Source: Candidatus Heimdallarchaeum aukensis (GTDB lineage Archaea; Asgardarchaeota; Heimdallarchaeia; Heimdallarchaeales; Heimdallarchaeaceae). From it: a stretch of 64,000 nt of DNA. The notes under the pieces are model-generated. The model saw nothing but the letters and a program-made list of their open reading frames with translations. It was not told the origin of the DNA and made no database searches. Position numbers and translations under genes: made by a program. The stretch covers positions 2,848,001-2,912,000 of the forward strand of contig CP084166.1 of assembly GCA_021513695.1 (NCBI GenBank). The letters run 5' to 3'. Shown piece by piece: positions 2,691 to 54,853 of the stretch; the stretch's first letter is position 1, and each line of letters opens with the position of its first letter.

Positions 2691-3773
2691 CTAATTAGAA
2701 ACCTCCCCTTTGATAAATTTCTCAACAAGATCATGTGCAATAGGGTCAGGAATTTGCTTGGGAGGATGTTTGAAGAAGTAACTAGAAACACTCTCTAATT
2801 TTCCACCTATCCCACGATCTTTAGCAATCTTAAGAGCTCGAACAACATCAATCATAACTCCTGCAGAATTAGGAGAATCTTGAACACTAAGTTTAAGTTG
2901 AACAGTTATTGGTTGTTCACCGAAATTCTTTCCTTTAAGCCACAAATAACAAACTTTCTCATCTTCTAGGAAAGGAACATAATCACTTGGACCAATACGA
3001 GTAGGAACTTCATAAGGAATCATACTAGTAACAGCTTCAGTTTTAGAGACACGTTTTGTTTGTAGTCGATACTCTTTTTTCATATTTTCAAAATCAGTGT
3101 TTCCTCCAACGTTCAATTGAAAAGTTTCATCGATCTTTATTCCTCGCTCATGAGCAAGACGGACAAGCATACGATGAAGAATAGTTGCACCTAATTGAGA
3201 TTTTATGTCATCTCCCGCTACTGGTACGCCTTTTTCTGCAAATTTTGCAGCCCATTCTTCATTACTTGCTATAAAAGCAGGAATACCATTAGCAAAGGCA
3301 ACGTTTGCATCAAGTGCTGCTTGAGCATATATTTTTGTAGCTTCTTCAGAACCAACAGGTAAGAAATTTATTAATACATCTGTTTTAGTTTCTTTCAAAA
3401 CTTTAGCTACATCTACAGGTTTAATTTCGTTCTCATCATAACAATAGAATGATTCTCTCATGTGTGGGGCTACACCATCAGAAATGGGGCCAGGCAATAC
3501 AGTTACTCCCTTGTGTGGTACGTCAGCAAACTTATTGCACACGTTGGGTGGTTGCCAAATTGCTTCAGAAATATCTTTCCCTATTTTCATTTTATTAACT
3601 TCGAACGCTGCTACCACTTCTACATCTCTAATGTGATAAGGTCCGAACTTTACGTGCATGATTCCAGGAACAAAATCATCTTCTTTGGCATTTTTGTAAT
3701 ATTCTAATCCTTGAATTAGCGCTGAAGCGCAATTTCCTAGTCCAGCAATCGCAATTCTTACTTTTTCTGTCAT
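2691..3773 (-). CDS. myo-inositol-1-phosphate synthase (archaeal type)
   Basis: IAIAGLGNCASALIQG Rossmann start. AGDDIKSQLGAT...NVGGNTDFENM matches the eukaryotic/archaeal MIPS GDDFKSGQT...NHLGNNDG catalytic block. 360 aa. Confidence 0.75.
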   Translation of the reverse strand: MTEKVRIAIAGLGNCASALIQGLEYYKNAKEDDFVPGIMHVKFGPYHIRDVEVVAAFEVNKMKIGKDISEAIWQPPNVCNKFADVPHKGVTVLPGPISDGVAPHMRESFYCYDENEIKPVDVAKVLKETKTDVLINFLPVGSEEATKIYAQAALDANVAFANGIPAFIASNEEWAAKFAEKGVPVAGDDIKSQLGATILHRMLVRLAHERGIKIDETFQLNVGGNTDFENMKKEYRLQTKRVSKTEAVTSMIPYEVPTRIGPSDYVPFLEDEKVCYLWLKGKNFGEQPITVQLKLSVQDSPNSAGVMIDVVRALKIAKDRGIGGKLESVSSYFFKHPPKQIPDPIAHDLVEKFIKGEVSN

Positions 3774-10725: not shown

Positions 10726-11523
10726 TTATTTAGAAAGTTTTAGTTTGAAAATTCCTGGAAAGTAATACTGACCCGTTTCTTCATCCTCAACTGCCAAACC
10801 AATCTCTGCCATCTTAGACAAAGTATCAACCGCACGCTCTGAAGACCAACCTAAATGTGATACAAGAATATCTCTAGTCAAAAATTCTAACCCTGTAGCT
10901 AACTGAAGAACAGCGCGAAAATCAGAAGAAGTTTCTAAAGGCTTGAATCTGATTAATACTTCATCATTTCCAAGATCAATTTCAGGTGGAATAACTTTAT
11001 CTTTCTGTAGAGAACGAATAGCTCGAATAATATGACTGGGACTAACTTCCCAGTTAGGACGAGTCTCCTTGAAATAATCAATGAAATTACCTAAAGTAAT
11101 AGCTCCACCAAATTCTTCTAATTCCTCATTACCTATTATTAGTATTTCTTGTCTAAGTTTTTGTTCGAAACCTTTACTGCCAAAAAGAACAGGAGTTTTC
11201 ATTTTTCCTGCAGTACCAATTGAACCAGTAAGTCCAGCTTGTTCTCGCAATTGCATGATTTTGTTAACTAAAAGTTTCGAAGACTTTAGAAGCTTCTTTG
11301 AATCCTTTTCAACTTTAATAATTCCTTCTTTAAGAATCTCTTTTCGTTTTTGTTTATCTTTCTCCTGAGTGGAAACTAAATCAGTATCAAACGCTTTATA
11401 CGCTTGTGAAAGAGAAGAACGAAAATCTTCATCAGAAATTTCTCTAACTTCCTTTTTTTCGTCTTCTGTTTCTTTCTTTCCTTTTCTTTTACCCATCAGT
11501 ATCAAGAGAAAATAAACAAGCAT
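10726..11523 (-). CDS. ESCRT-II Vps22/EAP30-like protein (tandem winged helix)
   Basis: C-terminal 150 aa align by eye to human VPS22/EAP30. Matching pairs: IIRAIRSLQKDK vs LIRAIKKLKALG, DFRAVLQLATG vs DHTVVLQLAEK, WSSERAVDTLSKMAEIGLA...YYFPGIF vs WETERARQVLEHLLKEGLA...HYWLPALF. Lys/Glu-rich N-terminus. Confidence 0.6.
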   Translation of the reverse strand: MLVYFLLILMGKRKGKKETEDEKKEVREISDEDFRSSLSQAYKAFDTDLVSTQEKDKQKRKEILKEGIIKVEKDSKKLLKSSKLLVNKIMQLREQAGLTGSIGTAGKMKTPVLFGSKGFEQKLRQEILIIGNEELEEFGGAITLGNFIDYFKETRPNWEVSPSHIIRAIRSLQKDKVIPPEIDLGNDEVLIRFKPLETSSDFRAVLQLATGLEFLTRDILVSHLGWSSERAVDTLSKMAEIGLAVEDEETGQYYFPGIFKLKLSK

Positions 11524-13416: not shown

Positions 13417-16068
13417 ATGAAAAGAATAACAACATATAGACAGTTAGGTTTGGTGCTAATATTAATAGCAACTACAACTTTCTTACTTTATCTTTCGACT
13501 CATAAAGAGGAAAATATGGTCCTGCAATCTAATAAAATAACAATAGATTCAATGTCTGGCGTAAATTCAGATGAAAATAGAACTGTAAAAAAAGCTTATT
13601 CAGTTCATTCTCCTATTCTTATTGAGTCTGATGATGATCTTACAGGTTTTCCAGGTTTAGGAACAAAGGATGACCCCTATGTCATTGAAAACTACAATAT
13701 AACTGACTCTACAACTCATGGTATAAAGATATCTGGGACTACAAAGTATATTCTTATTCACGATTGTTATCTTAATGGGGGAGGTTCAGGTTCATCATTT
13801 TATGGTATTTATATTGACTCTACTACAGATGGAACTATAACTGTGACTAACAACACAATAAGCAACTATGCTACTGGTATTTACCTTTCTTCTTGTTCTA
13901 ATAACTCCTTTACTTTTAATATAATAACGAATAGTAATAATGACGGCTTATATCTCTCTTCTAGCTCTAACAATACTTTTTCTTCTAATACAATAACAAA
14001 CAGTGACGATGATGGAATAACTATCTCTTTTAGTTCTGGTAACACACTCACATTTAATAATATAACAAATAATAACGGTGAGGGAATTTATTTTTCTTTT
14101 AGTTCAAATAATAACCTTGCTTCAAATATTATAGCAGAGAATATTAATTATGCAATAGATCTCTATTCTAGTTCAAGTAATACTTTTGTAAAAAACTTAT
14201 TTATCAAAAATAATCAAGGAGGTTCGTCTCAAGCTAGTGATAGTGGAACAATTAATAAATTCTATACTGATATAACTGGAAACTATTGGTATGATTGGAA
14301 TGGAACAGGAATATATGCGATAGATGGTTCAGCTAACAACTTTGATCCTTATCCTATGCATGTAGACCTTGATCGAGATGGTATGCCTGACAAATGGGAA
14401 GAAGATAATGGATTAAACACTAATATCAATGATTCTGCAGAAGATCTCGATAGTGACGGTTTAACTAATTTAGAAGAATACACTAGCAACACTAATCCTA
14501 ACTACTCTGACACTGATTCAGATGGCTTATCAGACGGAGAAGAGGTTCACACTTATTTTACTGATCCACTTGATTTTGATACTGACGATGATGGATTATT
14601 GGATGGTGAAGAAGTTAAAACCTATTCTTCAAATCCCAACAATCCAGATACTGATTCGGATGGTATGCCTGATGGTTGGGAGGTGAATTATGGTTTAAAC
14701 CCCTCAAATGATGAGTCTACAGAGGATTTTGATGGTGACGGTTTAAGTAACGTTGCTGAGTATTCTCACAATACTGACCCTACTAACCCTGATACTGATA
14801 ATGATGGCTTGTTCGACGGTCAGGAAATTAATACTTATGGTACTGATCCTACTAACCCTGATACTGACGGCGATGGTTTATCTGATGGCGAAGAGGTTGA
14901 TGTTTATGGTACAGACCCTCTTAATCCAGATACAGATAATGATGGTGTATCTGATGGTGAAGAAGTAAGTAAAGGAAAGAATCCAAAAGGTTCTTCTCTT
15001 TTTGCATATTTGTTCTCTTCACTTGCTAGTTCTATAATTACTATAATAGTTTTAGTGTTAGTAATTACAATCATTATCGCTTCTATAGTCGATATAATGA
15101 AGAAAAAAAAGAATAAACAGATGGATGAAACAAAGAAGCAAAAGATAACGAAAATAACGAAAAAAAAGAAAATAGGGTTGAAGTTCTTTAATGAGAAAAT
15201 AGATTCACTCGAAAATGAGTGGTCATGGGTAGAAAGAGAACAAAAAAGCGGTCAATCTTTATTCGATACAGCTTTTTCTGAGAAAATATCTGAACTATTT
15301 GTAGAATTAATTGAGACATTAATAGGATTTAATTACGCTTTTACAAAAGATGTAAAGTATCTAACAAACCTTGATTGGTTAAGCGCAAAAAAAAGACTAA
15401 ATAGCTTAGTTGACCAATTCAGAGCTTTATTGCTCAAAGAGCTAGAAGAAATTGATATTGATACAAAATTTGAAGAAATAAATAATGAATTGACAAAGAT
15501 AACTTTAGAAAATATTGAGAAACCCTCTGAAGATAAATTATTACAACCATTTGACGTTTTACTTGATACACTTGTAAAAATTGACAAGAATATAAGAAAA
15601 ACTGAGTCATTTATTGACGAATTCACTTTTTCTAAACTGACTTCTTACTGGGGAAAACTGTCTGACATTATAGTTACAGTAAAATCAGAAGTTGAAAATA
15701 AAAGAAGTGAGGTAAGGAAGAATATCAAAGAAGTAAAAGAAGTATTTACTGATAAAAGGATGAACCTTGAAAGGTTAGAGACCCTTAATAAAGTAGTTTC
15801 AGTCTATAAACAGATTTCACTTTCCAAACTAGCTTACTTGCTCAAATTTTCATCTAACTCTGCCCTAATTTACTGGATGTCAAAGCAAAATTTGGATTTT
15901 TCTTATAGGATTGTTGATGATGAGATAATTTTTGAAAAACAGGAAGAAGGAGAAAAAGAAGAAGGAAAAGAAGAAATAGAATACGATAGTGAAGTGGCTG
16001 ATGCAATAGACTCTCTATTAAGACAATACGATGAATGGTCAAAAGGTGATGAAGGAAAAAAGATTTAA
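13417..16068 (+). CDS. type I membrane surface protein with parallel beta-helix repeats, nine TSP3-like Ca-binding repeats, one TM helix and a long cytoplasmic tail
   Basis: N-terminal signal/TM LGLVLILIATTTFLLYL. PbH1-like repeats such as NNTISNYATGIYLSSCSNNSF and ITNSNNDGLYLSS. Nine DxDxDGxxDxxE repeats, for example DTDSDGLSDGEEV. TM helix IITIIVLVLVITIIIASIV followed by KKKKNK. 340-aa coiled-coil tail ending in a winged-helix-like LSKLAYLLKFSSNSALIYWMSKQ. Confidence 0.7.
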   Translation: MKRITTYRQLGLVLILIATTTFLLYLSTHKEENMVLQSNKITIDSMSGVNSDENRTVKKAYSVHSPILIESDDDLTGFPGLGTKDDPYVIENYNITDSTTHGIKISGTTKYILIHDCYLNGGGSGSSFYGIYIDSTTDGTITVTNNTISNYATGIYLSSCSNNSFTFNIITNSNNDGLYLSSSSNNTFSSNTITNSDDDGITISFSSGNTLTFNNITNNNGEGIYFSFSSNNNLASNIIAENINYAIDLYSSSSNTFVKNLFIKNNQGGSSQASDSGTINKFYTDITGNYWYDWNGTGIYAIDGSANNFDPYPMHVDLDRDGMPDKWEEDNGLNTNINDSAEDLDSDGLTNLEEYTSNTNPNYSDTDSDGLSDGEEVHTYFTDPLDFDTDDDGLLDGEEVKTYSSNPNNPDTDSDGMPDGWEVNYGLNPSNDESTEDFDGDGLSNVAEYSHNTDPTNPDTDNDGLFDGQEINTYGTDPTNPDTDGDGLSDGEEVDVYGTDPLNPDTDNDGVSDGEEVSKGKNPKGSSLFAYLFSSLASSIITIIVLVLVITIIIASIVDIMKKKKNKQMDETKKQKITKITKKKKIGLKFFNEKIDSLENEWSWVEREQKSGQSLFDTAFSEKISELFVELIETLIGFNYAFTKDVKYLTNLDWLSAKKRLNSLVDQFRALLLKELEEIDIDTKFEEINNELTKITLENIEKPSEDKLLQPFDVLLDTLVKIDKNIRKTESFIDEFTFSKLTSYWGKLSDIIVTVKSEVENKRSEVRKNIKEVKEVFTDKRMNLERLETLNKVVSVYKQISLSKLAYLLKFSSNSALIYWMSKQNLDFSYRIVDDEIIFEKQEEGEKEEGKEEIEYDSEVADAIDSLLRQYDEWSKGDEGKKI
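14365..14967 (+). repeat. in-frame tandem coding repeats encoding thrombospondin type 3-like calcium-binding motifs
   Basis: Repeated nucleotide blocks. cctactaaccctgatactgataatgatggc at ~14776 matches cctactaaccctgatactgacggcgatggt at ~14845 with a period of ~69 bp. Encodes YGTDPxNPDTDxDGxSDGEEV units. Confidence 0.7.
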
Positions 16069-34236: not shown

Positions 34237-37200
34237 TCACGCCATGCGTATTATCCCCTCACGAGGAGAATAGAGTTCACCATTTTCTCTTAATTGTCTA
34301 ATTACTTTGTCTACAAAATCTCCGTCTATTGAGTACTCTTTTTCAGCAATTTGTTTAACTTTGTTAATAGAAACCTCATTGGAAAAACCTTTCTTCGTTT
34401 CTTCTTTTATAATATCGATAACTTTTTGGAGATTACTTCGTTCACTTCTTGATGTTCCTTGTAAAAAGTAATCTACATCTACTTTTCCAGTTACTGGGTC
34501 TCGTCCTACTTGTTGTAGGGATTCTGTAAGAAGACGAATAGCTGCTTCAGCATGATCAATTGTTACATCTTCTTTTAGAGCCATTCTTGCTTGTGCTTCT
34601 GAAAGACGAATAATGGCTTCTAAATACCTGGGTGTAATAGCAATAGATTTTTTGTCTGATTGTTTTCTGAGATCAAGATAGAATTTTTCTATTCTACGCA
34701 TAGCTTCATCAGTTAATGAAGGTTCAATGTTTTGTTTAGCATAACTAATATATTTTCTTAAAAGATCCATAGAAATAGGAGGTTCTGCAGTAGCTGATAT
34801 TTGTCCTCTTCTTAATTCTAAAATATGTCTAGCCATATTAAGGTCGCTGTCTGGTTCTGGAACATCACGCATAATGTAGATAAGATCAAAACGAGAAATA
34901 ATTGTAGCGGGTAGATTAATATTGTCAACTGGGTGAGAGTTTTCCTCATATCTACCAAATTTAGGGTTAGCAGCAGCAATAATAGCTGTTCTTGCATTAA
35001 GCTGAGCAACGATACCCGCCTTGGCTATGCTAACGGTATTGTGAAGTATTAGTCCCCCTGCAATGAAGGTTTTTGTTGGAATTACAGTAACATCATAAAC
35101 CCATTTTGCTTTAAATTTTCCTTTGTTCTCTATTATTTCAACGTTTTTAACTTTAAGCCATTTGAAATTTAGCATACTTTCAATATAGCTTATTTGATTG
35201 TTGACATAATTAATTTCTTCTTTTAGAAATTGCTTGATCTGAGAAAGAAGCGAAGTCCTAACTTGTACGGTGTAGCCCCCATTCTCACAGTAATCTATTG
35301 TTGAACGGGTACTTTTAATTAATCTTGCAATTCCTGCTTGTGAATAACCAACGAATTCTCTCAGTTCACGAACATTATTTATTTCATAGATTTTTTGGTT
35401 AATGATGTTAATTCTTCTTTTTAATTTCTCTAATTCTCGTTCTACAACAAATTTTGCAATACTATTGTTAAATTTAATATTACCATAGAATCTTCCATTA
35501 TATACCATTCCTAGTCTTTTCATGCAATCAATTAAGCTGATTGCTGTTTCGACTGGTAAAACATCTCTTTTTTTGTGGTTTGCTTTAGTTCTGCTAATGA
35601 ATTTTTTTATTTTTGGATTGTCAGAATGGTGTGGAATAATTTTCCTTACAAAATTATCTAGACTTTCTGCTAAAATATAAACTTTATATCTATATTTTGT
35701 TTTTTTACTTTTGGGCGTTGTATACTTACTTTTATGTATTATAGTAAAGATATCTAGACTTAAGAGTAAATCTTGGTAGTCAACTGCAAGCAATTTTGAA
35801 GAAGTTGAAAAACTAACCGCTTCACTTTCTATTGATCCGTCACCATCAAAAGCAGCAGATAAGAAGGCAATCCGACAATCGTTATCTGCTTCAAATATTT
35901 TTTTAGGTATGCGCTTATAAATACTCTTTTTCATTAACTCTGGGAAATTTTTTGCCATAAAATTATACAATGATTTAGATATGATGCGTAAGACACGTCT
36001 TTTTTCAACGTTATCAATTGGTTCAATACCAAAAGTTGACTTAATAATTTCCTTCATTTCTGATACTATTTTTGGATCATAATTACTTAATCCCACTTCC
36101 ATTGATGAACCACTATAAGAATAACCTTCTGAAACGAAAAAGCCTAAAAACTTGGCTAAAGAGGTATTCATTTTTGTTGGTAGTCGAATTTTTTTATTTC
36201 CTAGTGAGATATCAGTATCTAAAGTGCTATTTGTATTAAAAACTAGATTTTTTACAGCTGGTATAAAGGATCCTTTTTTAACATTTTCAGCAGCTATTTC
36301 TCTTATGATCCCTTTGTGAAAAACGAAGATTGGGTGTTCTGGTGTTACAACAATATCTCTACCATTAGAATATGTGATTTTAATAAAATAGTCTGGTGCT
36401 GTATGACGACTGACACGGTCAATAATTATCGGAAAAGTGTCTTTGAAATCAGTTGTTTGAATGTTGATATTTAAATCTGAAATAGGTAAAATCTCACAAT
36501 TAATACCGTTAACTTTGCGTTCCGGATACTTATCAAATAAAGAATCTACTAGTGAACCAATTTGTGTTACAGTTCCATCAGATAATCTAATTTCAAACAT
36601 AGGATGAAAAGAATGCTGTTCCATAGCTTCATGTATAGCTGAACGATCATGTGCAGTCATTTTGTCGAATTCATCAATTGTGGCTAAACCACGATCTGCC
36701 AGTACTAAAGCTCCCGCTTCCAAAGAAAACTCTCCTGTGTCAGGGTCTCTAACTACTGCTGCAGTGTTGTGAGTAATAAACCCATTAACTATAAAATTGT
36801 GCGTTTGTGGGACAGTTAAGTCATAAACATATTCATCTTCTTTTTCGATAAATTCAACTTTAGTTACTTCATCCCAAAATATTTCGCTTGAAAGGAGCGA
36901 TTCTATAAGTTTAATATCTTGCTTCAACTCAGTGTTTGTTTTACAACTTGATTTAATTTCGCTGATGATACTCTCAATTTCTTTTTTATTGCTATTCTTA
37001 AAATCCAAAATTATGTTGTTATTAAAACTAAGGGTTGTGTTATTACAAAGATTGATTTTTTCTATTAATTCACCTAATAGTTGTTCTATGCAAGAAGCTA
37101 CTTTTCCATCTACTAAACTATCCTTTAAGTCTTTAGAATTTCTTTCTTTAGGGTTAATTGTTCCAACTAAATCTCCTTTAATCAAATCTTTAGCTTTTAT

Positions 37201-38637
37201 CCATACTATTCCTCTCTCTGAAAGAGTGAGAAGAGGAGTCTGTTGAGTTAATTTAATTGTCCTACCACTTTTAGATGAAATCTTTACTAATAAACGAGGA
37301 CTTTTGATTTTCCAGAATTTTTCAATTTTAGCAGAATTGATTTTTAAGTTAGAAGAATTTAAAATAGAATTATAATTTGAATCTGTTTCTAGATTATTTT
37401 CAACAAACCAGAAACCTTCTTGGTATTCTTGTGGTTTGTTGTTTTTAAACTCTCTTTCTACAATGTTTACTATTTTTTCAACCTTATTTTCAAAATATAT
37501 TTCACTATCTGCTGCAACACATAGTCCTGCTGCTGAACTTGCTCGCCCTGAAGTAAAAATACCTCGGGGAGCTAATCTGTTTGCAAAATGAAGAAGTTGG
37601 CTTTTTCCTACACCAGGATCACCAACTAATAATAGATTTGATTCTCCTCTCTGTTTCATTCCATCCGGTGTAACTCTGGAAACTCCTCCAAAGAGTACAG
37701 TAGCAATTGCCTCTTTGATGATTTCATGACCGTAGATAGAGGGAGCGATTGAACGAATGATTTTGTTATGAATGTTAATGTCTCTGGAAAGTTCTAGAAT
37801 CTCTTTTTCGGTGTCAGGATCAATTTCTAATTCTTCGAATTCCTTCTGTCTAGATGCAGCAAAATTGACCTCTAACCAAGGATCAAAAGTAGCCAACTGT
37901 TTCTTTTTTTGTTGTAAAGACGGTTTCATTCTAAGAATACCGTTAACAATTGCTCTATCTCCTGCTCTAACAACATCTACTAAATCTCCAACTAAGTATG
38001 CAGGAAGAGAGCGAGGAATTTGACCAGGAGGAAGGTTTTCTGGCTTTTCTTGAATAGTAATTGTCTGGATATCAGTGTAAGATGATTCTTCTGGAAGGAG
38101 CTTGAAAGGACCTTTTTTTCCACAATCGGGGTTACTACACTGGACAGGTTCAGAATAATAACCTAAATCTTGATCCCAGCTCATTATCTCCCCACAACGG
38201 GTACACTGGAAAACTCCTTGAATAAGAAGAGGTTTGACAACAGATTGACGAAGAACAATACCTTCAACCGAAATAAATTTCCCTAAATGAGTAGCTCGAA
38301 CATGACGTAGATCAACTATGTCCGGGATGTTTGCAAATCTTACTTTGAACCATTGTCTATTTTCTTGTGCATAACTCAAATCTTCTATAGAAATGACTTC
38401 AAAAAGTGCTTCATCTGCATCTTGAAACATAGTTTCAGGTTCGTCTCTAATCATCTGTGCAAGTCCAGGGTCATAACGCAAAATGTCATCATAATTGACA
38501 TAGAGAGAAGTTAAGCCCTCTAAAACCATCTTCTGAATTTGTTCAGTGTAAACATATCTACCATTTTCGTCCATGTAACCTTGAAAAAACTCTTTGAATC
38601 GTTCTGAATACCCTTTTGCAGTTGTATCAATATGCAT
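34237..38637 (-). CDS. mcm: MCM replicative helicase precursor containing two inteins
   Basis: N-terminal Zn finger CTRCGEIMSW...CSNPDCG. P-loop GDPGVGKSQ. GRASSAAGL|C...HN|TAAVVRD and IDEFDKM...EAMEQH|S...HN|TVSIAKAGI mark intein junctions. Extein sum is 689 aa. C-terminal winged helix. Confidence 0.9.
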   Translation of the reverse strand: MHIDTTAKGYSERFKEFFQGYMDENGRYVYTEQIQKMVLEGLTSLYVNYDDILRYDPGLAQMIRDEPETMFQDADEALFEVISIEDLSYAQENRQWFKVRFANIPDIVDLRHVRATHLGKFISVEGIVLRQSVVKPLLIQGVFQCTRCGEIMSWDQDLGYYSEPVQCSNPDCGKKGPFKLLPEESSYTDIQTITIQEKPENLPPGQIPRSLPAYLVGDLVDVVRAGDRAIVNGILRMKPSLQQKKKQLATFDPWLEVNFAASRQKEFEELEIDPDTEKEILELSRDINIHNKIIRSIAPSIYGHEIIKEAIATVLFGGVSRVTPDGMKQRGESNLLLVGDPGVGKSQLLHFANRLAPRGIFTSGRASSAAGLCVAADSEIYFENKVEKIVNIVEREFKNNKPQEYQEGFWFVENNLETDSNYNSILNSSNLKINSAKIEKFWKIKSPRLLVKISSKSGRTIKLTQQTPLLTLSERGIVWIKAKDLIKGDLVGTINPKERNSKDLKDSLVDGKVASCIEQLLGELIEKINLCNNTTLSFNNNIILDFKNSNKKEIESIISEIKSSCKTNTELKQDIKLIESLLSSEIFWDEVTKVEFIEKEDEYVYDLTVPQTHNFIVNGFITHNTAAVVRDPDTGEFSLEAGALVLADRGLATIDEFDKMTAHDRSAIHEAMEQHSFHPMFEIRLSDGTVTQIGSLVDSLFDKYPERKVNGINCEILPISDLNINIQTTDFKDTFPIIIDRVSRHTAPDYFIKITYSNGRDIVVTPEHPIFVFHKGIIREIAAENVKKGSFIPAVKNLVFNTNSTLDTDISLGNKKIRLPTKMNTSLAKFLGFFVSEGYSYSGSSMEVGLSNYDPKIVSEMKEIIKSTFGIEPIDNVEKRRVLRIISKSLYNFMAKNFPELMKKSIYKRIPKKIFEADNDCRIAFLSAAFDGDGSIESEAVSFSTSSKLLAVDYQDLLLSLDIFTIIHKSKYTTPKSKKTKYRYKVYILAESLDNFVRKIIPHHSDNPKIKKFISRTKANHKKRDVLPVETAISLIDCMKRLGMVYNGRFYGNIKFNNSIAKFVVERELEKLKRRINIINQKIYEINNVRELREFVGYSQAGIARLIKSTRSTIDYCENGGYTVQVRTSLLSQIKQFLKEEINYVNNQISYIESMLNFKWLKVKNVEIIENKGKFKAKWVYDVTVIPTKTFIAGGLILHNTVSIAKAGIVAQLNARTAIIAAANPKFGRYEENSHPVDNINLPATIISRFDLIYIMRDVPEPDSDLNMARHILELRRGQISATAEPPISMDLLRKYISYAKQNIEPSLTDEAMRRIEKFYLDLRKQSDKKSIAITPRYLEAIIRLSEAQARMALKEDVTIDHAEAAIRLLTESLQQVGRDPVTGKVDVDYFLQGTSRSERSNLQKVIDIIKEETKKGFSNEVSINKVKQIAEKEYSIDGDFVDKVIRQLRENGELYSPREGIIRMA
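35038..36612 (-). mobile_element. intein 2 in MCM (525 aa, Ser1...His-Asn, +1 Thr) with LAGLIDADG homing endonuclease domain
   Basis: Insertion inside the conserved EAMEQ(Q/H)-TISIAKAGI block. Starts SFHPMF, ends AGGLILHN. LAGLIDADG-like motifs LAKFLGFFVSEGY and IAFLSAAFDGDGSI. Confidence 0.8.
36766..37521 (-). mobile_element. intein 1 in MCM (252 aa, Cys1...His-Asn, +1 Thr), mini-intein or degenerate endonuclease
   Basis: Insertion between the conserved MCM residues SSAAGL and TAAVVRD. Starts CVAADSEIYF, ends FIVNGFITHN. No clear LAGLIDADG pair. Confidence 0.8.
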
Positions 38638-47203: not shown

Positions 47204-49018
47204 GTGGATTCTAAAAAGGAAATAGATATTAAAAAGCAATTAGGTGCCTTCTATACTCCTCAAGCAATAGTTGACTTTATGGTTTCCAGAGTTTTTGATT
47301 TTTTAGAAAAAAAGAAGAAAATTAACCTAAAATCGAAAAAGCAATTCACAGATTCTTTATTTTCTTTAAAAATCTTAGATCCTGCTGTCGGAACTGGAAG
47401 ATTCATTGAAGGAATAATAAGACACATAAACTATAATCTAAAGAAACTCGGATTTGAAACTAAAGATAAAGAAGAACTAATAACTGAATTTGTTTCTAAT
47501 AATTTATTTGGAATAGAGATTGATTTACTAGCTTTGAAAAAATGTAAAAGTAATTTGACTATAAAATATCCTTTTCTCAAAGAATCTCACTTAAAACAAC
47601 TAAAAGTAGGTAATTCTTTAGTAGAGCCAGATATATACAAAATGTTTGAAGATGAAAACTCTTCTCTCCTTTCTCCTTTTTCCTGGAAAGAAGAATTTCA
47701 CAACACCAAGTTTGATTTAATAATTGGTAACCCTCCTTATTTCAGTTTTAGAAAGTTAGGACTAGAAAAAATAGAAAATCAATTATTATACGACTATTTA
47801 AAAAAATCAAACTATTGGAAATGTTACTTTCGTTCTTCTGCAGATATCTACTTTTACTTTATTGTAAAATCTCTAAATCATCTAGAAAGAAAAGGAGTGT
47901 TATCTTTTATTATCCCAAGTTACTGGATAACTAACCATTTTGCTGATAAACTACGAGAAAAAATACTAAATTATAAGATTCTAGAAATCATAGATTTTCA
48001 AAACCAACAGGTATTTTATGATGGTGGAAAGAGGATAAATATTTCTTCCACCATCTTGAGTGTTATTAATGAAGTCCCCTCAAATTCTCTTTTTTCAGTA
48101 TATAAGTTGAAGAAAATCAGATCTTTAAATTTGAATGATTTTTTCAAAAAAGAAAACTTTGATGAGTTTAAAGTTTCTCAATCCTCTCTAACGAGAGAAA
48201 AATGGGTTTTGTCTCCAAATCAGCTTAAACTTAGCAAAATTGTAGAAAATAGCATAGACGGGAAAAAGTTATCTGAAATAGCGACAATTGCACAAGGTGT
48301 ATCTCCTGGAGTAAAAAACATATTTGTAATGACAGTAAATGAAGCTAAAAAAATGAAATTGGAAAAGGAGATCCTTTATCCTTTCATTACTAACAAATAT
48401 ATTTCAAAATGGACTTTTGCTTCTTCAAATCTTGTAACCATATTTCCGAAGAAAATAACTAATTTAGAAGAATATCCTTTTACTAAAGCTTATTTAGAAA
48501 AAAATAGAGAAATATTGATTAATGGCCCAGATAGGAAAAAACTTATTGCGAAAAATAAAATTAGGTGGTTTGATTTCAGTGTTTATAGGAATATTAATCT
48601 TTTTTTGAAGGAAAGAGAAAAAATACTTACTCCCTACAGAAGTAAAAGAGTAAGTTTCGCTTATGACAATGAAGGTCTTCTTGGTTCAACAGATATTTAT
48701 GCTATTTTTCCAAAGAGAAAAGAGCTGCTCTTTTATCTTTTAGGTATCCTAAATAGTAAAGTTTCGGAATTCTGGTTTAAAGAAGCAGGAAAGAAAAAAG
48801 GAACTGCAATTGAGTTTTTTTCAAAAGATCTTGCGAAATTCCCTATTCCCCCAATGAAAAATGAAAAAAAAATAACAGAAATTGTTAAACGAATAATACA
48901 TTGTAATATTAAAAATGAGTATAGTGATGTTGAAGAATTAGAGAAAAAATTAAATTATTTAGTTTTAGATGAGTACAATCTAGATGAGAGTTTCTTGCCT
49001 GATTTTTCTTTTTCTTAA
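47204..49018 (+). CDS. gamma-class N6-adenine DNA methyltransferase (TaqI/Eco57I-like) with C-terminal target-recognition region
   Basis: GTG start. N-terminal GAFYTP. Motif I LDPAVGTGRF. Motif IV IIGNPPYF. 604 aa. No adjacent restriction endonuclease ORF recognised. Confidence 0.75.
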   Translation: MDSKKEIDIKKQLGAFYTPQAIVDFMVSRVFDFLEKKKKINLKSKKQFTDSLFSLKILDPAVGTGRFIEGIIRHINYNLKKLGFETKDKEELITEFVSNNLFGIEIDLLALKKCKSNLTIKYPFLKESHLKQLKVGNSLVEPDIYKMFEDENSSLLSPFSWKEEFHNTKFDLIIGNPPYFSFRKLGLEKIENQLLYDYLKKSNYWKCYFRSSADIYFYFIVKSLNHLERKGVLSFIIPSYWITNHFADKLREKILNYKILEIIDFQNQQVFYDGGKRINISSTILSVINEVPSNSLFSVYKLKKIRSLNLNDFFKKENFDEFKVSQSSLTREKWVLSPNQLKLSKIVENSIDGKKLSEIATIAQGVSPGVKNIFVMTVNEAKKMKLEKEILYPFITNKYISKWTFASSNLVTIFPKKITNLEEYPFTKAYLEKNREILINGPDRKKLIAKNKIRWFDFSVYRNINLFLKEREKILTPYRSKRVSFAYDNEGLLGSTDIYAIFPKRKELLFYLLGILNSKVSEFWFKEAGKKKGTAIEFFSKDLAKFPIPPMKNEKKITEIVKRIIHCNIKNEYSDVEELEKKLNYLVLDEYNLDESFLPDFSFS

Positions 49019-50458
49019 TTTTTTATTAGTAATATAGAGGAAAATTAGAGGAATTAAGATATTTAAAAGATAAAATGGAGATGAAGTTGTTTCTTTTTTA
49101 CCCTCAGGAAAAGGATCGTAAGAATGAGCTGGACCATCTATTGAGTAAACACCTTCCTTTTCGTAATCTGACCAATAATTCCCCTTTTTGGTTTCTTTAT
49201 CATACCAAATATTATTTTGTCCCTCGTCATACGCTTGACTGTTTCCCAGAAAGTTATTATTAATGAATAAATTGTGGTGAACTAAAACCAGACTACTGTT
49301 CGATTTGAGAAGAATTGCGTAGTTAATATTTTGTTCAAAAGTGTTGTAAACTATGGAACAATTAAATGAGTCATCAATTTCTATTCCATAATAATTCCTA
49401 AAAAATAAATTATCACATAAGTAAATGTTTGAAGAAAAATAGATATTAATAGCTGTTTGTGATGAATAAGAAATAATATTCTTATCAAGTATAACATTTT
49501 CAGATTTAGAAACAATAATGGATTCTTGATGTGTATCCTTCAAAGTAGAATTGGTTATAATTATATCCTCAGAATTGTAGATATAGATTCCTGTGTCTGA
49601 ATCTGTTATATTCAAATTTGTAATAGTTAGGTTAAAACAATTAATAATCATCAAAAAACCTAAGTCTCCTGAGATGATTTTTCCTTCTGTATCAATATGA
49701 ATAGATATTGGTAATCCATTTATCAAATTATTAGAAAAGAAACAAGAATTGTACATTTCAGTCTCTTGCTCATAAAAGAAAATAATGTCATGTATCAAAT
49801 AGTTTGAACTAAAATTTGAAAAATAAGAGAATACAGAATAGATTCCATACCCTAAATTGTCCTCTATTACATTTTTATATACTGTTGAATTATTTGCTAC
49901 ATCCAAGAGAATTCCATGTCCTCCATTTTTTCTAATATGGTTTGAGGAGATAGTAGTAAAGTGTGAAGAAGAGATCTTAATGCCTGAATTCTTATGGTTT
50001 TCAATCGTATTATTTTCAATTACAGATGAATCAGTATAAAGTATCTCTATTCCATAATTTGATTGAACAATGGTGTTATTCTTGATAACAGCTGTTCCAT
50101 TTGCAACAAAAGCAATGTAAATTGCACTTCTTGTTTGACCAGCATTAATAAAACAATTCTGAATAACAAAATGGACACTCGTTCCTTTGATATAAATGCC
50201 AGATAAATAGGGAGTGCTAATTGAATAGTTTTCTATTCGATAAGGATTTTCTCTTGTTCCATTACCAGGAAAAAGAGAAAATTGCTCATCGGAAGAAATA
50301 ATGATAGGGTCATGTTTTCTAAGCTCAGAAAAACTTTGTTTTTTATTTTCTTTGGAAAAACCTTCAACAGTAACTATTGAACTTAAAAAAATTATATCCA
50401 GTAAAAAAACCAGTAAAAAAAATTTGTGCTTCAAACAAATCCTCCACAAAGCCTCCAT
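48980..50458 (-). CDS. secreted/membrane-anchored parallel beta-helix protein (paralog of the 13417-16068 ectodomain)
   Basis: N-terminal signal FFLLVFLLDIIFLSSIV. PbH1-like repeats (NNTIVQSNYGIEILYTDSSVIENNTIENHKNSGIKISSS). Conserved C-terminal NYWSDYEKEGVYSIDGPAHSYDPFPE, compare GNYWYDWNGTGIYAIDGSANNFDPYPM in the paralog. C-terminal TM LLNILIPLIFLYI. Confidence 0.65.
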   Translation of the reverse strand: MEALWRICLKHKFFLLVFLLDIIFLSSIVTVEGFSKENKKQSFSELRKHDPIIISSDEQFSLFPGNGTRENPYRIENYSISTPYLSGIYIKGTSVHFVIQNCFINAGQTRSAIYIAFVANGTAVIKNNTIVQSNYGIEILYTDSSVIENNTIENHKNSGIKISSSHFTTISSNHIRKNGGHGILLDVANNSTVYKNVIEDNLGYGIYSVFSYFSNFSSNYLIHDIIFFYEQETEMYNSCFFSNNLINGLPISIHIDTEGKIISGDLGFLMIINCFNLTITNLNITDSDTGIYIYNSEDIIITNSTLKDTHQESIIVSKSENVILDKNIISYSSQTAINIYFSSNIYLCDNLFFRNYYGIEIDDSFNCSIVYNTFEQNINYAILLKSNSSLVLVHHNLFINNNFLGNSQAYDEGQNNIWYDKETKKGNYWSDYEKEGVYSIDGPAHSYDPFPEGKKETTSSPFYLLNILIPLIFLYITNKKLRKRKIRQETLI

Positions 50459-52897: not shown

Positions 52898-54853
52898 TCA
52901 ATTATTTTTTATCCTTTTTCTTGAACTCAAAAGTATAATAGCAAAAATGAACACGATTTCACAATACATTGTCTTTGATGTAGTTATATTGTTGGGGACA
53001 TAGAAGTTGATGTTGTGCGTCTCTGAAACATATACATTACCATAGACATCATAAGTTTTTATTGTGTAAGGAACAAGTGAATCTGTATAATTGATTACAT
53101 AATAATATAAAGTATAGGAATAAAGAGTATTATCTACCTTAACCATTGGAACAGAAACAATACCGAAAAGTGTAGTAGTAACTGATAATAATACTAGTTC
53201 TAAGTCTGCACCTGTAACATTTGCAGTAATAGTTATTTTCGTATAATCGAAACCAGCTGGCTTTCTTGGATTAGCAGGACAATGTTCTATATTAGAAACT
53301 GATAGGTTGACATTATCGATTAAGTTAACGTTTTTAATCATCTTAAAAGGAGAAACAGATGCTAAACTCGCATAGTTTTTAGAAGTGAATAGAAAATCGT
53401 AATAACCATCTCCATCTGTGTCGACTGGATTATGTAAAAGAGATGGACTAAAGTAATTGAACCAACTATCATCATTTTGTTGAAAATTGGTTTGTTCATT
53501 AGTTTGTTTATAGAGTAATTTTCCTCTATCTTTTGTCTTAAGAAAAGAAGAAATAACATTAGGGGGTAAGCTAAAATCTTCATCAATATCAATAAAATTG
53601 TTTTTCTGGAGAGTAAATTTTTTGTATTTTGGTGATTGATCGAATTCAATAAACGTTTCATATTGAGATGTAGTTAATGCGAAAAGATTTCCTTGCCATA
53701 AACCTGAAAGTTCTTGAGTATTCCAAACTAAAAAGGGGATATGAAGAAATATGTTATTCAATAATTTCAAATAGTGAACGCCAGTTATATTTACGAAGGT
53801 ATATGCATAATATCTTCCAGTGTTGAAAATATTTTCTTCAAAAGTAATATTGTCAATCTGGTTTAAGTCCAGAATAAAAATGCTTCTCGTCATTATATTA
53901 CAGTTGTGCAAATTGAAACTATTAAATAAATTATGAAAAAAGTAGTAACTTCCGTTTCCTTGAATTTCTATTAACTTTGCGACTAAATTAAATTCAAAAT
54001 AAAACGATGCTGTTGCAAAAGCTTTTTCTGATTTTACAATATTATTTTCTACTCTAGCAGACGAATTTGAAAGATATAGGAAAGCATAATAATTGTAAAT
54101 GGTGTTGTTGATAAGTTTTATATCTGCTCCATGAGCTTGAATTGAAGCTCTTTTATAAAAAGACATTATGTTGATAATAGCATAAGTATCTAATTCATCT
54201 TCCGATACCAGAAAATCAAGAGTCGAATTATTTATTTCTAAAGAAGAGTTTTCATAGGTATTAAATTCAAAAATGTGAGCTATCTTTGAAAAATTTGAAT
54301 AATCAATTTTTTTTAATTTTAAGACCGTATTAATTATTGTTAAATTACCGTAAATGGAGATAAAGTGTGTAGAGAGGTTCCATGTTTTTACTGTGTTTAT
54401 ATCCTCTGATGAGAGATTAAAAAATACTTGACACATGTTAAAAGTCAGGCTCCCTTGAGGTTGAATTGTTATGTTTCCTTCAATAATAATGCTACAATTA
54501 ACAAAACTCATTTTTTTATCTACTATCAAGTTATTGAATGTGCATGAGTTAGAAAAACTCCTTACTTTCCCGAGTTTTTTATTTGTTTGAGACTCCTGTG
54601 ATACTTCACGATCTTGTTCATTTTTATTTTCAACTTCGTTCGTTTCTATTATCCCTTTATCCCTAATTACGCTATTATTAACATTGCTAAACTCATTAAA
54701 GGCACTTAACGTGTTAAATAATAATATGATAAAAATAAATATACATATGCCTTTTAATATTATTTTCTTTCTCATTATAATTGTCTTTTCTTTTTTGTAT
54801 AAATGTTTTACTATTTTTAAAAAAAGGAAAGGACTTATGTTGGGCCTATCCAA
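52898..54853 (-). CDS. secreted/membrane-anchored beta-helix-like surface protein (third family member)
   Basis: N-terminal signal/TM IILKGICIFIFIILLFNTLSA. Asn-rich repeats with NN(I/T)... beta-helix rungs. One DTDGDGYYD Ca-binding-like motif. C-terminal TM YCEIVFIFAIILLSS. 651 aa. Confidence 0.5.
   Translation of the reverse strand: MDRPNISPFLFLKIVKHLYKKEKTIIMRKKIILKGICIFIFIILLFNTLSAFNEFSNVNNSVIRDKGIIETNEVENKNEQDREVSQESQTNKKLGKVRSFSNSCTFNNLIVDKKMSFVNCSIIIEGNITIQPQGSLTFNMCQVFFNLSSEDINTVKTWNLSTHFISIYGNLTIINTVLKLKKIDYSNFSKIAHIFEFNTYENSSLEINNSTLDFLVSEDELDTYAIINIMSFYKRASIQAHGADIKLINNTIYNYYAFLYLSNSSARVENNIVKSEKAFATASFYFEFNLVAKLIEIQGNGSYYFFHNLFNSFNLHNCNIMTRSIFILDLNQIDNITFEENIFNTGRYYAYTFVNITGVHYLKLLNNIFLHIPFLVWNTQELSGLWQGNLFALTTSQYETFIEFDQSPKYKKFTLQKNNFIDIDEDFSLPPNVISSFLKTKDRGKLLYKQTNEQTNFQQNDDSWFNYFSPSLLHNPVDTDGDGYYDFLFTSKNYASLASVSPFKMIKNVNLIDNVNLSVSNIEHCPANPRKPAGFDYTKITITANVTGADLELVLLSVTTTLFGIVSVPMVKVDNTLYSYTLYYYVINYTDSLVPYTIKTYDVYGNVYVSETHNINFYVPNNITTSKTMYCEIVFIFAIILLSSRKRIKNN

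Follow-up and report, generated by a model that had tools for sequence, protein, structure and literature searches.

What does a protein that resembles an adhesin on the outside of the cell do with a long, conserved tail on the inside? The question is raised by a gene in a window of 64,000 nucleotides of Candidatus Heimdallarchaeum aukensis (contig CP084166.1, positions 2,848,001 to 2,912,000 of the forward strand; the window means this whole stretch, and coordinates without a locus number refer to it). The 883-aa open reading frame (ORF) picked out by the initial annotation, which was made from the letters alone, is real: an exact-sequence look-up identifies its product as UJG40673.1 (UniProt A0A9Y1BKF9). 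NCBI calls it a "right-handed parallel beta-helix repeat-containing protein" and UniProt "Probable pectate lyase C"; database annotation has so far covered the ectodomain only. The answer that we favor, with moderate confidence, is a role in adhesion or recognition at the cell surface and, at the end of the tail, a PCI-type docking/oligomerisation unit common to an Asgard network of sensors and scaffolds. The gene is built as follows:

13417-16068, plus strand: complete gene, 883 aa and a stop codon (ORF list; exact-sequence look-up).
13441-13500, plus strand: N-terminal hydrophobic segment (aa 9-28) after MKRITTYRQ (charge +3), a putative signal peptide or signal anchor (hydropathy, charge).
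13597-14370, plus strand: right-handed parallel beta-helix ectodomain (aa 61-318; Pfam, NCBIfam, and a family hidden Markov model, HMM).
14278-14355, plus strand: beta-helix C-terminal cap motif GNYWYDW..GIYAIDG..DPYP (aa 288-313), a cap also present in a paralog at 48980-50458.
14365-14964, plus strand: nine thrombospondin type 3 (TSP3) Ca-binding repeats (aa 317-516; Pfam TSP3_bac, motif count).
14995-15096, plus strand: predicted transmembrane (TM) helix (aa 527-560; Kyte-Doolittle mean up to 3.4 over 19 aa).
15097-15171, plus strand: polybasic stop-transfer (aa 561-585; 13 K/R, 2 D/E by charge count).
15109-15750, plus strand: predicted cytoplasmic helical bundle (aa 565-778; about seven long helices).
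15754-15936, plus strand: winged helix (WH), probably PCI-type (aa 780-840): H1 KRMNLERLETLNKVVSV, beta1 QIS, H2 LSKLAYL, H3 NSALIYWMSK, wing SYRIV/EIIFE.
15937-15987, plus strand: acidic low-confidence linker (aa 841-857, KQEEGEKEEGKEEIEYD) of variable length in the family (AlphaFold2 predicted local distance difference test, pLDDT, below 50; alignments).
15988-16065, plus strand: terminal helix SEVADAIDSLLRQYDEWSKG (aa 858-877), conserved, and basic tip DEGKKI (aa 878-883; alignment, motif scan).

Which parts of this protein face the outside? The ectodomain matches several models well above their cut-offs: Pfam Beta_helix (PF13229) at aa 129-277 (2e-25, 89.7 bits vs 25.9), NosD (PF05048) at aa 98-296 (6e-23, 81.8 bits vs 23.6), the NCBIfam para_beta_helix model of PbH1 repeats (TIGR03804; 47.1 bits vs 19.45), and TSP3_bac (PF18884), which matches in seven stretches (3.9e-36, 122.9 bits vs 25). 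The D-x-D-x-DG repeat occurs nine times between aa 317 and 513, seven times in the strict form DxDxDGxxDxxE; partial NCBIfam matches over this region are to Myxococcus CglD and MtsD (66 bits vs 400 and 32 vs 800, respectively). The beta-helix (NosD/PbH1) ectodomain, the nine calcium-binding repeats, the signal or TM segment at the start, and the strong TM helix with a poly-Lys stop-transfer, all read from the letters in the initial annotation, are borne out. The 25 residues that follow the second TM segment contain 13 K/R and 2 D/E, those before it 3 K/R and 3 D/E; because this positive-inside signal is strong, the beta-helix and TSP3 repeats are placed outside and the last ~320 aa inside, in what is predicted to be a single-pass surface protein, either type I or N-anchored bitopic, with its C-terminus in the cytoplasm. 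N-glycosylation sequons in the ectodomain (9 found vs 13 expected from composition) are not enriched and were dropped as topology evidence.

The tail itself had been described as a 340-aa Lys/Glu-rich coiled coil that ends in a segment resembling a WH. Its composition is as stated (14% Lys and 13% Glu, all-helical before the WH), but it is only ~320 aa long, and AlphaFold2 predicts an intramolecular helical bundle, with no obvious dimeric coiled coil (mean pLDDT 80.4, predicted template modelling score 0.64). The C-terminal segment comes out as H-beta-H-H-beta-beta, the canonical WH topology (pLDDT about 80-88). In Foldseek, almost all of the top ~28 matches of the tail model are PCI subunits of the proteasome lid, the COP9 signalosome (CSN), eIF3, and TREX-2 (best E 4.5e-3, probability 0.75-0.80), placing the WH nearest to PCI domains rather than to DNA-binding winged helix-turn-helix (wHTH) domains; the WH subdomain also superposes structurally on known PCI WH domains. 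Sequence comparisons lean the same way: sub-threshold matches to Pfam PCI (PF01399) and CSN8_PSD8_EIF3K (PF10075; 13.5 bits vs 23.7) cover aa ~786-830 (E 0.03-0.07); a profile search of the PDB yields nothing significant, the best relevant match being the PCI region of eIF3a (E 0.13); and a paralog at locus L002 (8319-11699) scores 17 bits against PCI (E 0.007). Because the Foldseek matches and these weak PCI, CSN8, and eIF3a similarities agree, we regard the WH as PCI-type, a conclusion to which several independent lines lend weak-to-moderate support.

How widespread is such a tail? A word-seeded search of a 5.8-billion-protein set returned one or two matches (for the tail, a single fragment) or was swamped by K/E-rich candidates, and a first scan of genome contigs, made with patterns of the window subgroup, gave no relative. 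When 1.84 billion representatives were searched exhaustively with HMMER, 12 true relatives and one low-complexity false match were recovered. Every full-length relative begins with a signal or anchor and an ectodomain, either the GNYW-capped beta-helix or a different one; 8-19 TSP3 repeats come next, then a TM helix and its basic stop-transfer, and the tail of 290-320 aa ends AID.LL..(F/Y).(E/D)W...G.GKK. The last ~110 residues are the best-conserved portion in the alignments. The consensus of the terminal helix is (A/S/E)ID.L(L/I/M)..(F/Y).(E/D)W, then five residues and GKK, with I, D, L, and W invariant. Genome matches of the tail family fall in Heimdallarchaeia only (Ca. H. endolithica PR6, Heimdallarchaeota 7H_bin4, and NCBI "Heimdallarchaeaceae archaeon"). 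In the examined Heimdall loci, a local HMM of the module recognizes ~20 distinct carriers, nearly always in tandem arrays of two to four, unlike the 883-aa gene, which is solitary in the window.

The ending travels much further than the full-length architecture. When the back-translated motif I-D-x-L-[LIMFV]-x-x-[FY]-x-[DE]-W-x5-G-K-K was run against a metagenome collection, it matched 53 times at 51 loci, and 51 of the 53 matches lie within three residues of a stop codon; among 2.9 million viral contigs, the motif has no match. Most of these loci carry a highly conserved version, ..ILDLGTKF.RLQI.EI.E.C....LI..V..MI.NKEIYA.YF.S.KSVAFNQQANIDEIDKLM..YK.WEEKKVGKK, called here Loki-type, a name for the sequence type and not a taxonomic assignment of the contigs; they are low-GC marine-sediment contigs, one labelled LCGC14. 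Loki-type membrane carriers combine (i) an SBBP beta-propeller, TSP3 repeats, and a TM helix; (ii) a NosD beta-helix and a TM helix; or (iii) a WD40/PQQ ectodomain set between two TM helices. Other carriers are cytoplasmic leucine-rich repeat (LRR) arrays, WD40 proteins, proteins with two to four TM helices, and a Ras/Roc-family small GTPase joined to the WH, helix, and GKK unit via helical hairpin repeats (a 421-aa ORF that ends at position 3171 of locus L032). At locus L003, small neighboring genes share the ending, one with only an N-terminal TM helix and two with LRR arrays. Whether the tail family is fused to other sensor domains was a question put by the initial annotation; it is, and far more broadly than expected. 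Because LRR, WD40, GTPase, and multi-TM proteins all bear the unit, we interpret it as an assembly or docking module.

Where does the unit begin and end? It is N-terminal or tandem-duplicated at three loci (L050, L013, L020), and the domain of WH and helix, about 90 aa long, therefore ends with the ID.L...F..W helix, the GKK tip being specific to C-terminal copies; in PCI subunits, too, a helix closes the WH domain. Proteins at two of these loci, L050 (840-2363, minus strand) and L013 (3-1622, plus strand), start with two units in tandem, continue with a Cys-rich region that resembles a zinc ribbon, and end in a TM helix. Among Pfam, NCBIfam, and PADLOC models, none covers the unit; nor do the PADLOC HMMs for anti-phage defense match the 883-aa protein or four other carriers. 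A Loki-type carrier at L029 does pass the Pfam PCI threshold at aa 470-541 (29.0 bits vs 22, E 1.2e-6, profile positions 12-82 of 84). A window-type HMM restricted to the WH matches three proteins on Loki-type contigs (9.7e-9 to 5e-4), and both subtypes therefore coexist in the same genomes.

Could the terminal helix be a known short signal? In 16 family members, its net charge is -1 to -6, for which reason a membrane-targeting amphipathic helix was rejected; basic residues are confined to the very end of the protein. An ESCRT-III MIM1 motif, (D/E)xxLxxRLxxL(K/R), was rejected on inspection of the alignment: the L3/F7/W10 spacing fits, but R6 and K/R11 are absent. A C-terminal dilysine signal of the COPI type (KKxx or KxKxx) was discarded, as GKK is followed by anything from 0 to 3 residues in the 51 C-terminal matches. 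Binding of PCI domains by an acidic, tryptophan-containing peptide of the Sem1/DSS1 kind may be a parallel and is kept as a lead.

How might such a protein work? A beta-helix on a TSP3 stalk is the usual build of microbial adhesins and of glycan- or ligand-binding surface proteins, and here a NosD-like beta-helix would be held away from the cell on a stalk of nine Ca-binding TSP3 repeats, where it may bind a ligand. On the inside, a helical bundle of ~215 aa would lead to a ~100-aa unit comprised of a PCI-type WH, a short acidic linker, an acidic amphipathic helix with the hydrophobic face I-L-L-Y-W, and the GKK tip. This unit is proposed to be a portable protein-protein docking/oligomerisation domain that Asgard archaea attach to many sensors and scaffolds. 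Through it, the surface protein is most likely connected with further carriers, or with a shared cytoplasmic partner composed of WH domains, much as PCI subunits assemble via their WH edges and the helices behind these. The protein would then be a receptor for adhesion or recognition that connects with a network of proteins inside the cell, and not a DNA-binding regulator.

Several observations weigh against this reading. The AlphaFold2 model of the tail is a prediction built on an 11-sequence alignment, and the topology is deduced solely from hydropathy and charge. Foldseek gives no match at E<=1e-3 and TM-scores of ~0.16, which falls short of establishing the tail as a whole as the equivalent of a PCI domain; in the 883-aa protein, Pfam PCI remains below its threshold (14.0-14.8 bits vs 22, E 0.03-0.06). 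The link between subtypes is similarly narrow: whole Heimdall-type and Loki-type units align at a probability of 81.5% (hhalign, E 1.1e-5), with the confidence located in the helix alone, and once the helix is removed, no similarity between the two WH profiles can be detected (hhalign P=0.31). The PCI match at L029 belongs to the Loki subtype, and the homology of its WH to that of the window subtype is not independent of the helix. The partner, the oligomer, and the ligand are all putative.

What else could the tail be for? The unit may be an address read by machinery of the ESCRT-II-like (EAP30)/SPFH type, perhaps once its terminal lysines have received a ubiquitin-type modification, in which case the surface protein would be cargo whose abundance or location (e.g., in protrusions or vesicles) is set by the Asgard ubiquitin-ESCRT pathway; we see this as possible but rather unlikely. 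Its appeal lies in the neighborhoods of some carriers. A block of EAP30, SPFH, an LRR protein with the unit, and a TM protein with the unit is kept between L003 (8445-11790) and L047 (2325-5692) at 42-52% amino acid identity and with no nucleotide similarity, and a cassette of ThiF (E1), JAB/MPN, a small ORF, and a UFC1-like E2 stands directly upstream of the orthologs P0009 (L010) and P0010 (L003), on the same strand:

L010 7047-9850, plus strand: E1-JAB-small ORF-UFC1-like E2 cassette upstream of P0009.
L003 1640-4431, plus strand: the same cassette upstream of P0010.

The E2 of L010 reaches the UFC1 threshold (25.6 bits vs 25). In the lid, CSN, and eIF3, PCI domains pair with MPN/JAB domains, a further point in favor of sorting. 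In the window, an EAP30/Vps36-family gene (10726-11523, minus strand) lies 1.9 kb upstream of the 883-aa gene; it is divergent, however, separated from it by a beta-CASP RNase gene, and its product is only 23% identical to the copy beside the carriers in L003. No ubiquitin cassette adjoins the 883-aa gene, and most arrays (L001, L002, L004, L007, L011) have neither EAP30 nor ubiquitin genes in the DNA examined. The E1-JAB-E2 adjacency counts as a single evolutionary observation because it is found in one ortholog pair only, and the variable distance of the GKK tip from the C-terminus does not favor an address. Literature on ESCRT loci offers a precedent for the docking reading and is compatible with sorting: PCI-like WH domains are present on membrane-associated kinases in archaeal ESCRT loci, HTH/PCI domains occur in Asgard ESCRT-associated multidomain proteins, oligomerisation or WH-WH docking is the role proposed, and contextual links between ESCRT and SPFH are strong (Makarova et al., 2024; PMC10936438). 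TSP3, LRR, the terminal motif, and this family do not appear in that paper, and no other paper describing the family was found. A more sweeping proposal, which we consider doubtful, is that the unit is an Asgard-wide "address domain" through which surface receptors, LRR/WD40 scaffolds, and GTPases of the Ras-like kind are connected with a ubiquitin-linked (E1-JAB-E2) machinery of ESCRT-II-like and SPFH proteins; if true, PCI/MPN assemblies would have in it a membrane-bound relative in archaea, and eukaryotic receptor sorting a forerunner.

At the other extreme, the protein may be a passive part of an envelope or matrix, its tail just an anchor or spacer, for example in a lattice with paralogs, and engaged in neither signaling nor sorting. 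The paralogs' large, variable tandem arrays, with insertion sequence (IS) elements between them, are typical of envelope and adhesin families, and the same genome encodes a paralog in which a short, simple C-terminal anchor replaces the long tail:

48980-50458, minus strand: tail-less paralog, 492 aa, with a double beta-helix, a GNYW..IDG..DPFP cap, a C-terminal TM helix, and KKLRKRK (blastp 4e-29, 5e-23; Pfam).

Yet a mere spacer would not be expected to have its last ~100 aa as the best-conserved part, nor would the same unit recur on LRR, WD40, and GTPase proteins, which are soluble and play no part in the envelope; a passive protein is, in our estimate, quite unlikely. The initial annotation is largely right in what it observed and partly so in its interpretation: of the one-component transmembrane receptor or membrane-tethered regulator that it suggested, the regulator in its DNA-binding form is not supported. 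A one-component receptor or membrane-tethered transcription factor, in which an outside ligand controls DNA binding by the WH either directly or via proteolytic release, could invoke the predicted WH fold, as many wHTH domains bind DNA, and the basic stretches beside the membrane and at the tip of the tail. But in 16 family members the WH has a net charge of -5 to +1 and a hydrophobic or acidic H3 (charge -3 to +2), values on which a DNA-binding WH was rejected; the best structural matches are PCI WH domains and not DNA-binding wHTH factors; no DNA-binding HTH or transcription-factor family in Pfam or NCBIfam matches the tail; and the unit sits on LRR, WD40, and GTPase scaffolds and in ~20 paralogs per lineage. 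This makes a transcription factor very unlikely. Least of all do we expect a surface-anchored polysaccharide lyase or hydrolase with a catalytic beta-helix and an incidental tail, as the UniProt name implies: the beta-helix fold is common to pectate lyases, but only the generic Beta_helix, NosD, and PbH1-repeat models match, with no pectate-lyase family model among the Pfam and NCBIfam matches and no catalytic motif identified (catalytic residues were not examined), and the conserved tail would be left unexplained.

The Heimdall arrays have features of their own. In Ca. H. endolithica, carriers are interspersed with IS copies encoding an rve integrase; because IS-type transposase genes (HTH and rve integrase core) lie between paralogs at L001 (3840-4628 and 11102-12040, both plus strand), the array appears to be recombination-prone. 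Family member P0002 appears to be divided between a 292-aa beta-helix ORF and a second ORF, of 716 aa, with the GNYW cap at its start (L004 311-3597, plus strand, and also L005 and L006); since the split is the same in three assemblies, it is either a frameshift/pseudogene or a genuine two-gene arrangement. In two Heimdall genomes, paralog arrays are flanked by a conserved trio (L002 11900-15443 and L004 6695-10222, both minus strand) consisting of a radical-SAM/SPASM enzyme, a secreted protein of ~565 aa ending in GGGGGGGCACACACACACAGGGR, and a zinc-ribbon protein of ~165 aa, which could be a peptide-modification cassette.

Apart from the 883-aa gene, the window (GC ~31%) is a typical piece of archaeal chromosome, with genes for Hel308, NurA/HerA, GINS, an intein-bearing MCM, RIO2, a DRG GTPase, POR, deoxyhypusine synthase, CDP-archaeol synthase, and the EAP30/Vps36-family protein; Rfam and tRNA scans of the window give no matches. 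The MCM helicase gene (34237-38637, minus strand, 1466 aa) is split by two intein-splicing regions and a LAGLIDADG homing-endonuclease domain, and two myo-inositol-1-phosphate synthase paralogs stand in tandem (1609-2685 and 2691-3773, both minus strand). An Eco57I/TaqI_C-type (type IIG-like) DNA methylase ORF (47204-49018, plus strand) overlaps the 3' end of the convergent beta-helix paralog at 48980-50458 by 39 nt. This paralog is one of two tail-less relatives, both on the minus strand, that had been claimed in the window; for the other, at 52898-54853, a relationship is undetectable (no Pfam match, blastp E=0.06, no GNYW motif, hhalign P=0.3 against the beta-helix profile), and it was set aside. 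It encodes a 651-aa orphan that starts with a signal or anchor and closes with a TM helix and a basic end; it contains 20 N-x-S/T sequons and a single DTDGDG motif.

How does this protein compare with known systems? For the tail unit, the closest are the PCI subunits of the proteasome lid, CSN, and eIF3 (CSN7, Rpn12, CSN8, eIF3k/a; PF01399, PF10075). Unlike these, the unit is part of the cytoplasmic tail of a membrane protein, is only ~100 aa long, scores below the Pfam PCI threshold in the 883-aa protein, and has an invariant helix motif of its own (ID.LL..F/Y.E/DW) and a GKK tip; the part upstream is a helical bundle in which a TPR-like solenoid is at most putative (TM-score ~0.16), and the JAB gene upstream of P0009/P0010 is the only lead to an MPN partner. 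The Ser/Thr kinases and Vps28-C/SB proteins discussed in PMC10936438 resemble it in carrying a small C-terminal PCI-like WH on membrane-associated archaeal proteins, in a context of ESCRT-II-like WH proteins and SPFH, and in the oligomerisation or WH-WH docking proposed for them; compared by description, their N-terminal domains are kinase or Ig-like, in place of the beta-helix and TSP3 repeats here. Bacterial adhesins (Myxococcus CglD and MtsD, NosD-like PbH1 proteins) share the surface TSP3 Ca-binding arrays and parallel beta-helix modules but are lipoproteins or secreted and lack a TM helix followed by a conserved cytoplasmic domain. Eukaryotic type I adhesion receptors (integrin/cadherin-like, thrombospondin type-3 repeats) may offer a functional analogy, with a Ca-dependent adhesive module, a single TM helix, and a docking tail, but the tails are not homologous. 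ToxR/CadC one-component regulators are bitopic and have a cytoplasmic WH, yet theirs is an N-terminal, basic, OmpR-type wHTH with the sensor at the C-terminus, whereas here the sensor comes first and the WH, which is not basic, resembles those of PCI domains. What is new is a PCI-like WH domain with an invariant helix motif of its own, in architectures not previously described.

A conserved cytoplasmic domain has been overlooked in a protein filed as a beta-helix protein or "pectate lyase", and its relatives touch on a little-known question, how Asgard surface proteins are linked to intracellular machinery. The presence of a PCI-like unit on adhesin-like, LRR, WD40, and small-GTPase proteins defines a hub of interactions in Asgard archaea that can be put to the test. 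Should the contextual links with ESCRT-II-like, SPFH, and ubiquitin genes prove sound, the unit would provide a handle on cargo recognition in the archaeal ubiquitin-ESCRT pathway and bear on the origin of PCI-type assemblies, matters of relevance to Asgard cell biology and to eukaryogenesis.

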